In this document: one piece after another, positions 19,668 through 60,820 of the stretch | Layout: each line of letters starts with the position of its first letter | Numbering within the stretch: the stretch's first letter is position 1 | From: Escherichia coli O127:H6 str. E2348/69 | Lineage (GTDB): Bacteria; Pseudomonadota; Gammaproteobacteria; Enterobacterales; Enterobacteriaceae | DNA length: 64,000 nt | Reading direction: 5' to 3' (one strand) | NCBI RefSeq assembly: GCF_000026545.1 | Contig: NC_011601.1 | Made by a program: the position numbers and the translations under genes | The notes under the pieces: model-generated | What the model was told of the DNA's origin: nothing | Seen by the model: only the letters and a program-made list of their open reading frames with translations | Databases searched by the model: none

Positions 19668-19840
19668 GATGAGCATTCAGATAGTGGTTCACGCGCACGG
19701 GTTGCGCACCGCCGGAGTAAGGATTTACTGAGGCTAGCGACGCCATCATAACGAGCAAAAAGTGCGATCGTCAAAGAAGAATCGTGAGGAAATGCTGCAT
19801 TGCTGACATTTACGCCAGCAATGCAGCGCAAAAGAACTTT

Positions 19841-49940: not shown

Positions 49941-50108
49941 TGTTTATTTCCTCTGTTTCCAGTTGCGTTATTGTTTCTACAGCAAAGAAAATTCGATCGG
50001 GCCGATGATTGAATCTTAACAACAGCGTACGTATGCTAAATATGAGAAATCTCATAGCGGATAAACATCGTGAAAGAAATCCACAATAATGATCTTAAGC
50101 AGCAATTG

Positions 50109-50768
50109 ATGAGTGAATCTGCGTTTAAGGATTGCTTTTCAACGGATGTTTCAGCCGATACGCGGCTGTTTCATTTTTTAGCGCGTGACTACATTGTGCA
50201 GGAAGGGCAACAGCCGTCCTGGCTGTTTTACCTGACGCGAGGCCGCGCCAGGCTTTACGTCACGCTTGCTAATGGTCGCGTGTCGCTGATCGATTTCTTT
50301 GCCGCGCCCTGTTTTATTGGCGAGATTGAGTTAATCGACAAAGACCATGAACCGCGTGCAGTGCAGGCTATTGAAGAGTGTTGGTGCCTTGCGCTCCCTA
50401 TGAAGCATTACCGCCCGTTGTTATTAAACGACACGCTATTTTTACGAAAACTCTGCGTCACCTTAAGTCATAAAAATTATCGTAATATTGTTTCTTTAAC
50501 TCAGAATCAATCATTTCCGTTAGTGAATCGCCTGGCAGCTTTTATATTACTCTCGCAGGAAGGTGATCTTTATCACGAAAAGCATACGCAAGCGGCAGAG
50601 TATTTAGGCGTCTCTTATCGTCATCTTTTATATGTTCTCGCGCAATTCATTAATGACGGTTTATTAATTAAAAGCAAGAAAGGGTATCTCATTAAAAACA
50701 GAAAGCAGTTGTCAGGACTGGCGCTGGAGATGGACCCGGAGAATAAATTCTCCGGGATGATGCAGTAA
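50109..50768 (+). CDS. yeiL: CRP/FNR-family transcriptional regulator
   Basis: 219 aa from [10 protein letters not shown]; cNMP-binding-like fold followed by a C-terminal helix-turn-helix. Confidence 0.8.
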
Positions 50769-57148: not shown

Positions 57149-58278
57149 TATGCGCCCTCCCCAAGACCAGCAGCGATAGCGTCGCCAATGGCTTTCAGCG
57201 CCTGTTCAGCATCTGCACCCTGGGCGGTAAAGCGTAGGCGATGACCTTTCTTAACGCCAAGTGCCACAACTTTCATCAGACTACGTCCGTTTGCCGGTTT
57301 GCCGGTGCCATCAAGGTTTGTCACGGTAATATCACTGTTAAATTGTTTAATGGTATTGACCAGCATGGTACCTGGACGAGCATGCAGGCCGTGTTCATTG
57401 CGCACCACAAACTCCGCGCTTAACACGTCGTCGGTCGGCGCATCATCGCTGGTCAGCAGCGCCAGCAACGTTGCCGCATCCGCTTTCAGCAAGCGGTCAG
57501 CTTTATTATCGAGCAACAAATCAGCGAGACGCTTAAGAACCGCGATGGGCTGATCGTCATTCATCGCCACACTCACCAGCATGGCTGCCGTTTCGCCGTC
57601 CACATCAAAAGCATTTGCCGCACGGCTTACCGCAATCGCGCTACGCAGATTGCCTTCGGCGCTATCGCTCAGCCAGATACCCTGCCCGAGGTTCAGCGGT
57701 TGTTCATTGATGGCTTTGGTGACGAAAGTGGCGTCAACTGCCCCCGCTTCTTTCAGACGCGCAGCGTTCAGCGCCTGAAGAGTCAGCAGATCGCTGGCGA
57801 CGATATCCAGCGTCAGCATTTCGTTGTCGAGCTTCAGCTGCTCACTCTGCTTTTCGCCCATCAGCAATGCGCGAAGTTCTTCTGCTGTTGTTGCTGACTT
57901 CAGTTGTTCAGCAACGGAATCATCGCTCAGTACGTGGGTCAGCTGGCGTAGCAGGCCCAGATGTTCATCCGAGCTGGCAGCAATACCGATCGCCACGTAC
58001 GCTACCTGGCCGTCACCCCAGGTGACGCCTTCCGGGAACTGAAATACCTGAACGCCGGTTTTCAGCACCTGATCGCGGGTGTCGGTAGTGCCGTGTGGAA
58101 TAGCAATACCATTGCCGAGGAACGTTGAGGTTTGCTGTTCGCGCGCCAGCATGCCATTGACGTAGCCTTCAGCTACATTACCGGCCTGCACCAGCGCCGC
58201 AGCGACCTGGCGAATCGCCTCTTCTTTGTCTCCGGCCTTTTCGCCCGGATGGATGTCCTGTACGGATAACTGGAACAT
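57148..58278 (-). CDS. fruB: Fructose-specific PTS EIIA / FPr multiphosphoryl transfer protein
   Basis: 376 aa; recognised as the fused EIIA-FPr protein. Confidence 0.92.
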
Positions 58279-58292
58279 AGTTCTCCTCTCTT

Positions 58293-58376
58293 GCTGAATT
58301 GAAACGATTCAGCTTCTATGAGAAAAAAGCGCCAACCTGGCTTAGGGTTAAAGACAAGATCGCGCTGAAACGTTTC
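58293..58376. promoter_or_regulatory. Two Cra (FruR)-type operators in the fruBKA promoter region
   Basis: GCTGAATTGAAACGATTCAGC at 58293-58313 and the perfect palindrome TGAAACGTTTCA at 58365-58376, both matching the Cra consensus TGAAWCGNTTCA. Confidence 0.7.
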
Positions 58377-58644
58377 AAGAAAGCATAATACTTTTGTTTC
58401 AGCACGCAAGGAAAGCCGTAAAGTTATGAGCAAAAGTTTGATGTGCTGCACAATTTTTTGTCATTTTTCCTAATTGCTGATGGGAAAATCCGTTATCAGC
58501 AATTTCATTTCAGCAGCGTCAGCAGCCAATCAGCAACAGTGAAATGGCATTTTGATTATTCGTGGCGCTTTTGATTTCGCTGTCTGTTTATTTTCTGACA
58601 AGCAGCGTAAACTCCGCGTCTTCCTCTTCCAGTGATCGACCAGC

Positions 58645-59826
58645 ATGCATAACTCCCCCGCAGTCACCAGCGCGAAATCGTTTGACCTGACCTCGATGGC
58701 GTTTTTAATCGTTGCCTTTCTCACCGGTATTGCGGGCGCTCTGCAAACCCCGACACTCAGTATTTTTCTTACTGATGAAGTACATGCCCGTCCGGCGATG
58801 GTGGGATTCTTCTTTACCGGCAGCGCAGTCATTGGGATTCTGGTGAGTCAGTTTCTCGCCGGGCGCTCTGATAAGCGCGGCGATCGCAAATCGCTGATTG
58901 TCTTTTGCTGCCTGTTAGGCGTGCTGGCCTGCACCCTTTTTGCCTGGAATCGCAACTACTTTGTTTTGCTATTCGTTGGCGTCTTTCTTAGCAGCTTTGG
59001 CTCGACCGCTAACCCGCAAATGTTTGCCCTTGCCCGTGAACATGCCGACAAAACCGGACGTGAGGCGGTGATGTTCAGCTCTTTTTTACGCGCTCAGGTT
59101 TCACTGGCATGGGTCATTGGCCCACCGCTGGCTTATGCCTTAGCGATGGGTTTCAACTTTACGGTAATGTATCTGAGCGCAGCGGTAGCGTTTATTGTTT
59201 GCGGCGTGATGGTGTGGCTGTTTTTGCCGTCGATGCAAAAAGAGCTTCCGCTGGCGACCGGCACGGTTGAAGCGCCGCGCCGTAACCGTCGCGATACGTT
59301 GCTGCTGTTTGTCATTTGTACATTGATGTGGGGCTCGAACAGCCTGTACATCATCAACATGCCGCTATTTATTATCAACGAACTGCATCTTCCCGAGAAA
59401 CTGGCCGGTGTGATGATGGGGACCGCCGCCGGGCTGGAAATCCCGACCATGTTGATTGCCGGATATTTTGCCAAACGTCTAGGTAAGCGCTTCTTAATGC
59501 GCGTTGCTGCCGTGGGTGGCGTCTGTTTTTACGCAGGAATGCTGATGGCGCATTCACCTGTCATTCTGTTGGGCTTGCAGCTGCTAAATGCTATTTTTAT
59601 TGGCATTCTGGGCGGCATCGGGATGCTCTATTTTCAGGATTTGATGCCCGGTCAGGCAGGTTCAGCCACCACGCTCTATACCAACACGTCGCGCGTGGGC
59701 TGGATCATCGCAGGATCAGTGGCGGGCATCGTCGCCGAGATCTGGAATTATCACGCTGTGTTCTGGTTTGCGATGGTGATGATTATCGCCACTCTGTTTT
59801 GCTTACTGCGAATTAAAGATGTTTAA
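58645..59826 (+). CDS. setB: Sugar efflux transporter (major facilitator superfamily)
   Basis: 393 aa with about 12 hydrophobic segments. Confidence 0.88.
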
Positions 59827-60077
59827 GGCGCGGTCAGCATTTCCAGATCGATAAGCCAGGTCATTGCCTGCTGACGCGAGTTACCGCACATTTCAGCGCT
59901 GGCTTGTAAGCCTGCACAGACTTTCGGTCGCAGTGGCGAGGTGAAAATTTTACAGCGTTGCTGTTCATCAAGCTGAATGCAGGGCGTATTGGCGGGCTTG
60001 CCATCTGGCATACCGGGAATAGGGCTGGAAATTGAAGGGGCAGTGCAACACGCCCCGCAACCCGGACGGCATTCCAT
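59823..60077 (-). CDS. yeiW: Small cysteine-rich protein (UPF0153-like)
   Basis: 84 aa from [14 protein letters not shown], with 9 cysteines; its stop shares the TTAA palindrome with the setB stop. Confidence 0.7.
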
Positions 60078-60231
60078 ACGTTGTTCTCTTAAGGTTAACC
60101 ACCGGATTGATGAGCGCGCACAGTACCACCTTTTTTGCACCAGCAAAAGTGCGAATACCACTTGCCCGAAAGGCCCGTCGCGAGTACTTTGTCGCGATAT
60201 TTTTGACATTTTTGACTACAGGAATTTTTCG

Positions 60232-60804
60232 ATGCCAAGAGCGAACGAAATTAAAAAAGGTATGGTACTGAATTACAACGGCAAACTGCTGCTGGTTAAG
60301 GACATTGATATTCAGTCGCCCACTGCCCGCGGTGCCGCTACGCTGTACAAAATGCGTTTTTCTGATGTCCGTACCGGGCTGAAAGTAGAAGAGCGTTTCA
60401 AAGGTGATGATATCGTTGACACCGTGACGCTGACCCGCCGTTACGTTGACTTCTCCTATGTCGATGGCAACGAATATGTCTTTATGGATAAAGAAGACTA
60501 TACCCCGTATACCTTCACCAAAGATCAGATTGAAGAAGAGTTGCTGTTTATGCCTGAGGGCGGCATGCCGGACATGCAGGTGCTGACCTGGGACGGTCAA
60601 TTGCTGGCGCTTGAGCTGCCGCAGACCGTTGATCTGGAAATCGTTGAAACTGCACCAGGCATCAAAGGGGCATCTGCCAGCGCCCGTAACAAACCGGCGA
60701 CATTGAGCACTGGTCTGGTGATTCAGGTACCAGAATACTTAAGCCCGGGCGAAAAAATTCGTATCCATATCGAAGAACGCCGTTATATGGGTCGTGCTGA
60801 CTAA
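60232..60804 (+). CDS. yeiP: Elongation factor P-like protein
   Basis: 190 aa from [24 protein letters not shown] (EF-P fold N-terminus); the track ORF is an upstream in-frame read-through. Confidence 0.88.
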
Positions 60805-60820
60805 CTTCAGCCGCATGCAG

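Follow-up and report, generated by a model that had tools for sequence, protein, structure and literature searches.

The region between the divergent genes fruB and setB of Escherichia coli contains a series of short conserved sequence motifs, which we interpret with moderate confidence as a binding-site array for a multimeric or flexibly linked DNA-binding protein that would be phased with CRP and act mainly on setB. An initial annotation of this locus had drawn attention to a perfect inverted repeat and had suggested that it could be a setB-specific operator for a dimeric regulator. Comparison with orthologous regions suggests that this palindrome is no operator in its own right and that its arms would rather be a pair of copies (A and B), in opposite orientation, of a motif that is repeated several times between the CRP site and setB.

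Organization of the fruB-setB intergenic region

All positions refer to the window, i.e., the whole stretch of 64,000 nucleotides that was analysed. Here, fruB (376 aa, minus strand) starts at 58278 and the ATG of setB (393 aa, plus strand) is located at 58645. The two genes share a control region of 366 bp, which is 100% identical to that of E. coli ATCC 11775. It occurs once per genome in 5413 of 5426 complete E. coli genomes and in nearly all of them the identity over its whole length is 98.6-100%. The setB product is a sugar-efflux pump and fruBKA is a model target of Cra. To our knowledge, the regulation of setB is almost uncharacterised. Outside the inverted repeat and its immediate surroundings, the following elements were located. 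Mean identities refer to an alignment of 80 sequences, in which the whole intergenic region has a mean identity of 0.63.

58291-58298: extra copy of TTGCTGAA, directly adjacent to the proximal Cra operator and located shortly before the fruB ribosome-binding site
58298-58313: Cra operator proximal to the fruB ATG, ATTGAAACGATTCAGC, 2 mismatches to the Cra consensus, mean identity 0.91
58364-58379: Cra operator distal to the fruB ATG, GCTGAAACGTTTCAAG, 2 mismatches to the Cra consensus, mean identity 0.97
58382-58409, minus strand: predicted fruB sigma-70 promoter, -35 TTGCGT (58409-58404), -10 TATGCT (58387-58382)
58396-58403: perfect right half-site for Cra, GTTTCAGC, which stands alone between the -35 and -10 elements of the predicted fruB promoter
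58437-58452: CRP-like site TTTGATGTGCTGCACA, 2 mismatches to TGTGA-N6-TCACA, conserved and common to both divergent genes
58540-58620, plus strand: conserved blocks before setB, comprising TGAAATG, two copies of TTTTGATT, CTGTTTATTTTCTGAC and GCGTAAACTCCGCG

When the intergenic region was searched with the Cra consensus gcTGAAtCGaTTCAgc allowing up to 3 mismatches, the operators at 58298-58313 and 58364-58379 were the sole matches. The distal operator combines a perfect left half with an imperfect right half (CAAG), and the isolated half-site GTTTCAGC is located 24 nt from this perfect left half (CGCGCTGAAAC / GTTTCAGCACG). It is moderately conserved, being present in Escherichia, Salmonella and Citrobacter only. 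The TTGCTGAA copy at 58291-58298 is almost invariant among the 80 sequences, and it may be conserved merely as part of the fruB 5' UTR. Further downstream in the window, GCTGACTAACTTCAGC (60796-60811), a GCTGA-N6-TCAGC palindrome with 3 mismatches to the Cra consensus, was observed at the 3' end of the open reading frame 59977-60804.

The site at 58437-58452 is the only CRP-like match in the region. It is located upstream of the palindrome, which itself is no CRP site, and a single CRP site activating both fruB and setB has been described (PMC3105977). The fruB promoter was predicted from a PWM scan combined with conservation. With this promoter, fruB transcription would start near 58375 and CRP would be placed at about -70. 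On the other side, the conserved blocks at 58540-58620 probably represent the setB core promoter and 5' UTR, with the two TTTTGATT repeats sitting 19 bp apart. PWM scan and conservation yielded TAAACT (58608-13) as the sole -10 candidate for setB, but this is weak and is accompanied by a poor -35 element, so that no convincing conserved sigma-70 promoter of setB was identified. A plus-strand transcription start supported by 5 reads is located at about 58186 (NC_000913.2 2261425), antisense to the 5' end of fruB. This start inside fruB has been assigned to setB with a 460-nt leader (supplement of PMC3415461; Kim et al. 2012), and the transcript, if real, would span both Cra operators, the CRP site and the palindrome.

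In the literature that we searched, only CRP, Cra (two operators) and an FlhDC gSELEX peak near the setB ATG have been assigned to this region, together with a weak peak of the RpoH holoenzyme and a predicted CyuR motif with a low score. For 58472-58524, no factor was assigned in these papers. The published picture of two Cra operators and one CRP site thus appears incomplete, since the array in this stretch is as conserved as the Cra operators and is in phase with the common CRP site.

The inverted repeat in E. coli and its relatives

At 58472-58504, we found the inverted repeat AATTGCTGAT-N13-ATCAGCAATT with perfect 10-bp arms, just as the initial annotation had described it (complete sequence AATTGCTGAT GGGAAAATCCGTT ATCAGCAATT). 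The outward flanking bases (T/T) are unpaired. Its location had also been given correctly: the repeat ends 141 bp before the setB ATG (about 140 bp had been claimed), and the left arm is 93 bp away from the Cra operator at 58364-58379 (about 100 bp had been claimed). The repeat and the motif copies around it are as follows.

58472-58481: left arm AATTGCTGAT, which holds the conserved site A (TTGCTGA, 58474-58480)
58476-58480: core of site A, GCTGA, in 68/80 regions, mean identity 0.93, i.e., the level of the Cra operators
58482-58494: spacer GGGAAAATCCGTT, 13 nt, mean identity 0.32, deleted in the Enterobacter cloacae complex
58495-58504: right arm ATCAGCAATT, identical with site B, a lineage-variable extra motif copy; its core TCAGC is found in 33/80 regions (28/74 outside Escherichia), mean identity 0.59
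58509-58515, plus strand: site C, TTCAGCA, in 71/80 regions, mean identity 0.93, inverted relative to A
58518-58524, plus strand: site D, GTCAGCA, in 69/80 regions, mean identity 0.95, direct repeat of C
58529-58536, plus strand: site E, ATCAGCAA, in Escherichia only (6/80 regions, 0/74 outside)

In the window, 11 distinct inverted repeats have perfect arms of 10 bp or more and a spacer of up to 30 nt. First-order Markov shuffles gave a mean of 2.6 such repeats, and our own simple arithmetic predicts about 1.9 per 64 kb and about 0.011 per 366-bp intergenic region. One perfect 10-bp repeat is not significant by itself, but its setting is.

A 45-bp stretch surrounding the repeat is present without any change in 5259 of 5426 complete E. 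coli genomes (97%) and occurs once per genome. Since almost the entire species shares a nearly identical intergenic region, conservation of the palindrome within E. coli is of little informative value. The record 'Escherichia coli strain SCPM-O-B-8794' lacks the perfect palindrome and shows many differences from the typical E. coli intergenic region. Its sequence resembles that of other Escherichia species and the strain may not be E. coli sensu stricto. Among 79 orthologous regions across Enterobacteriaceae, perfect 10-bp arms were detected in E. coli only: the arms measure 9 bp in a sister clade and 8 bp in E. albertii, and three other Escherichia species have none. The exact palindrome was present at no second enteric locus. 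In metagenomic data, it was found in 61 stretches, 39 of which represent this locus and 22 unrelated sequences from other organisms. The initial annotation had proposed a search for the palindrome elsewhere in the genome and had named uniqueness together with lack of conservation in related species as evidence against its proposal. The palindrome is indeed unique and as such not conserved, but one of its arms is.

An array of conserved motif copies

The hexamer TCAGCA/TGCTGA occurs five times within 62 bp (58475-58536), with copies starting at 58475, 58496, 58510, 58519 and 58530. This is the densest cluster of the hexamer in the 64-kb window, and 60 shuffles produced a maximum of 3. For the longer 8-mer TTGCTGA[ACT]/[AGT]TCAGCAA, four of the five non-coding occurrences in the window fall into the fruB-setB region.

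To compare the region between species, we used a SetB scan, which returned 80 loci from named species. The divergent neighbour was fruB in 79 of them and the intergenic length varied between 330 and 372 bp. All counts given per 80 regions refer to an alignment of 79 orthologous regions plus the window. The typical enterobacterial fruB-setB locus, with a SetB that is 81% identical, was also seen in a record named 'Chryseobacterium sp. 18061', which suggests a mislabelled or contaminated assembly.

From the list above it can be seen that sites C and D, which fall outside the coordinates reported for the palindrome, are the best-conserved partners of the left arm. Even within this arm, conservation is restricted to the motif: the outer AATT (identity 0.57) and the inner T (0.14) are poorly conserved. 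The consensus sequences are GC(T/G)TCAGCAAAT for A (complementary strand), TTCAGCAA for B, TTCAGCA for C and C(G/T)TCAGC for D. Most genera carry TTGCTGA(A/C) and (T/G)TCAGCA, and sites A and B of E. coli read GCTGAT/ATCAGC. Nearly every species has a perfect inverted repeat of 7-11 bp that is built from this same motif with B, C or D as partner, and the spacers range from 1 to 37 nt across species. Palindromes thus appear wherever two motif copies face each other, which indicates that the conserved unit is the 7-8 bp motif. A perfect palindrome may therefore point to the wrong unit, and in this case only one of its arms is the conserved element.

The copy number of the motif varies and reaches six in Enterobacter. 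Sites C and D of E. coli are tandem units of 9 bp (58510-58527, TCAGCAGCG TCAGCAGCC), and strain E89 carries additional 18 bp that correspond to two more copies of the 9-bp unit GTCAGCAGC. These extra units indicate that the C/D part is a short tandem repeat able to expand. The 90-95% identity band comprised 1 of 5413 E. coli genomes. In Intestinirhabdus alba, fruB has been lost and no intact copy is present between fruK and setB. The remnant has kept the CRP site, one Cra operator and C-D, and site A is gone. A protein search aimed at fruB loci from other families of Enterobacterales yielded almost exclusively Salmonella.

Spacing of the motif copies

We next quantified the distances between CRP site, A, C and D over 53 regions. 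The CRP site keeps a fixed distance of 168-171 bp from the fruB ATG. Site A is found 28-30 bp after the right CRP half-site in 44 regions, and in the remaining 9 regions the first GCTGA is found at 19-20 bp. According to the alignment, this closer GCTGA reads as an additional motif copy that precedes A by one helical turn. A and C are 31-34 bp apart in 46 of the 53 regions and 21-23 bp in the other 7, and the distance between C and D is 9-10 bp in 52/53. For A and B, the start-to-start distance is either 8 or 17-20 bp depending on the genus, which leaves a gap of 3 or 12-15 nt between the cores. Insertions and deletions are thus tolerated only in steps of about 10-11 bp, i.e., of one helical turn, as would be expected for proteins that have to be kept on one face of the DNA. 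The distance between C and the setB ATG varies little (131-140 bp, sd 2.8). In contrast, the distance from C to the fruB ATG is bimodal (sd 4.6). Judged by these distances and by their persistence in I. alba, where fruB is lost, C and D are tied to the setB side. The proposal of a setB operator is therefore supported insofar as there is a conserved cis-element with a setB-near part that keeps a steadier distance to the setB ATG, but the palindrome is not the unit of this element.

A possible symmetric operator for a dimeric regulator

The initial annotation had argued that the spacing of the arms fits a dimeric regulator. If this was the case, A and B together would form a classical operator, recognized by a symmetric dimer and specific for setB in E. 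coli. The symmetry is perfect over 10 bp and the sequence around it is identical in the 5259 genomes mentioned above, although identity within E. coli says little. There is also weak covariation between A and B, which concerns the innermost pair (A-T in 9, C-G in 5 and T-A in 3 sequences), and the corresponding score was reached by 10 of 500 shuffles. However, a rigid dimer should conserve both half-sites at a fixed distance, and neither was observed. The left core is present in 68/80 regions but the right core in only 33/80, and the latter is missing from three other Escherichia species. Nor is a rigid dimer compatible with a gap between the cores that measures 3 nt in some genera and 12-15 nt in others. 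Moreover, a second enteric locus with the exact palindrome was not found, and the 45-mer occurs once per E. coli genome; these searches for recurrence at other promoters relied on exact matches. Taken together, these data make a classical dimer operator unlikely, and the claim that the spacing fits a dimeric regulator was not borne out.

Possible auxiliary half-sites for Cra

Alternatively, the array might consist of auxiliary Cra half-sites, to which Cra would bind via flexibly tethered DNA-binding domains, in the manner of CytR beside CRP, or as FruK-bridged dimers, looping to the two canonical operators. Docking at A, C and D would then couple setB and fruB to fructose-1-phosphate. The hexamers GCTGAA/TTCAGC represent the outer part of the Cra consensus, and A, C and D share GCTGA/TCAGC with it. 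The array also adjoins the primary Cra target, and two more Cra-type half-sites are present at 58291-98 and 58396-403. On the other hand, no match to the 16-bp consensus with up to 3 mismatches was found in 58470-58540. Canonical Cra operators measure 14-16 bp with half-sites abutting at a central CG, but the arms of the palindrome are 13 nt apart, and abutting half-sites are normally needed by dimers of the LacI family. Two positions inside the core, A and D mostly have a C where Cra sites have A or T. In addition, the literature describes only two operators at fruB. We thus consider this scenario rather unlikely. If true, it would imply a new binding mode for a well-studied global regulator and would place the sugar-efflux gene setB under the control of fructose-1-phosphate. 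The initial annotation had regarded the palindrome as separate from the Cra operators. It is distinct from the two canonical operators, but its motif GCTGA(A)/(T)TCAGC corresponds to the outer part of a Cra half-site.

A palindrome possibly without function

It may also be that the palindrome has no function of its own and arose by chance or by perfection of a quasi-palindrome, with the hexamers being by-products of promoter architecture. In 64 kb, one or two perfect inverted repeats of 10 bp would be expected, and the exact arms recur in the 22 unrelated metagenomic sequences. Furthermore, the pattern TTGCTGA-N(1-30)-TCAGCAA has a second match in the window, which results from codon choice in the fruB coding sequence. 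This match, TTGCTGACTTCAGTTGTTCAGCAA (57891-57914), is located about 400 bp from the proximal Cra operator and encodes VAEQLKSAT. Its synonymous positions vary freely between species and we consider it a coincidence. Since the shuffles had predicted no such match, they underestimate how often this motif is to be expected in coding DNA. Another repeat with TTGCTG/CAGCAA in common with the palindrome is located at 19794-19827 between two minus-strand genes, the downstream one encoding a D-alanyl-D-alanine endopeptidase. This perfect 12-bp inverted repeat (GCTGCATTGCTG-N10-CAGCAATGCAGC) is probably a terminator hairpin and unrelated. Lack of function would explain the perfection of the repeat that is specific for E. 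coli, but not the conservation of A, C and D at the level of the Cra operators over many genera, and the indels in helical-turn steps are left unexplained as well. As a reading of the whole arrangement it therefore appears improbable to us.

Part of the conservation could be due to a weak promoter, with D providing TTCAGC as -35 element and with TGAAAT, 16-17 bp away, as -10 element, but the latter would have no A at -11, which makes this a poor reading.

Possible RNA or DNA secondary structure

A functional RNA hairpin (or DNA cruciform), as part of either a long setB leader or an antisense transcript across the intergenic region, is very unlikely. For E. coli, a free energy of -13.6 kcal/mol was predicted for the hairpin (z-score of -3.95 relative to shuffles). 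A transcript from the weak plus-strand start within fruB, with its leader of 460 nt, would include the repeat, but 5 reads are too weak as support. In Salmonella, a U-rich tract follows the local version of the hairpin, but this tract is not conserved. Neither are the partner arm and the loop length. RNAalifold did not detect any conserved pairs (0) in 39 diverse orthologs and no Rfam match was obtained with an E-value below 1. A and C can pair in 74% of the cells but do not covary, and the stem sequence itself is conserved. A and B can pair in 55%, and their weak covariation, mostly of the innermost pair, is of a size that arises in structureless relatives. Complementarity of A and C without covariation together with the lack of conserved pairs indicates that the primary sequence is conserved and not the pairing.

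The initial annotation had also concluded that the repeat is not a terminator, and our data confirm this. The stem is A+T-rich, the loop measures 13 nt and TTCATTTCAG follows instead of a T run. When 58200-58720 was scanned for sites resembling a consensus promoter or a terminator, none was found.

Other candidate regulators

Several known regulators were considered and rejected. The sgrS promoter does not contain TCAGC, which argues against SgrR, and the uhpT promoter has CCTGG/CCTGA repeats but not GCTGA, which argues against UhpA. YeiL, a member of the CRP/FNR family encoded about 8 kb away (50070-50768), lacks the motif upstream of its own gene and the variable spacing does not fit this family. 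The published FlhDC box is located in the setB coding sequence (about 58699). Readings of the hexamers as sigma-54, sigma-E or sigma-32 elements were dismissed by eye because of misfits in spacing and conservation. For CyuR, a motif scan has given a hit at setB -198 (Z-score 4.58) and setB is up by 1.4 log2 in a cyuR deletion (PMC11408624). The predicted site for its motif GAAwAAATTGTxGxxATTTsyCC is GcAcAAtTTtTTGCcATTTtTCC at 58448-58470, with 2 bp between its end and the palindrome. It overlaps the CRP site in the right half of the latter and shows little conservation from genus to genus.

A model for the array

The binding-site array is the explanation that we prefer. According to this model, the motif would be (T)TCAGCA(A), or TTGCTGA(A) on the complementary strand, with a length of 7-8 bp, and its copies would be arranged in the order A(-), [B(+)], C(+), D(+) between the common CRP site and the setB core promoter. 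A, C and D would constitute the conserved core and B would be an optional extra copy. A protein sitting beside CRP on one face of the helix would modulate setB and possibly fruB. That the same motif is found with different partners and spacers in different species is expected from reuse of one motif. Starting from what can be read directly in the DNA (motif, conservation, phasing and uniqueness in the genome), we infer that a protein binds here; which protein this might be and in which direction it would act are further steps of deduction. The perfect 10-bp symmetry would then be a recent by-product in E. coli, originating either from chance or from template-switch correction of a quasi-palindrome. 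Knowing which protein occupies the array would reveal whether sugar efflux and fructose uptake are co-regulated.

Comparison with known systems

The array belongs to a familiar class, clusters of transcription-factor binding sites, and it can be compared with several well-known members. With the Cra (FruR) operators of fruBKA it shares the outer letters GCTGAA/TTCAGC, the intergenic region and a comparable depth of conservation. However, Cra operators are 16-bp units whose halves abut at a central CG, whereas the hexamers of the array are isolated or 3-29 nt apart, and the inner letters of a Cra half-site (AAC/GTT) are missing.

The lac auxiliary (pseudo-)operators are similar in concept, since additional weak sites close to a strong operator would increase its local occupancy. 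They are full-length near-consensus sites, whereas the array consists of isolated half-sites. The possibility of auxiliary sites has been raised for Cra (PMC11157272).

Arrays of oligomerising regulators, such as those of the Fur hexamer model and of sugar repressors of the DeoR type, also comprise several 6-8 bp units in mixed orientation. Their copy number varies between species and their periodicity is close to a helical turn, as observed here, but the sequence of the array is unrelated to their motifs.

CytR is a flexible repressor of the LacI family and its operators are flanked by CRP. These operators resemble the array in consisting of short direct or inverted repeats with variable spacing beside a CRP site. 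The CytR motif, GTTGCATT, differs from that of the array (TTGCTGAA), and CytR is placed between two CRP dimers, whereas a single CRP-like site is present in the fruB-setB region.
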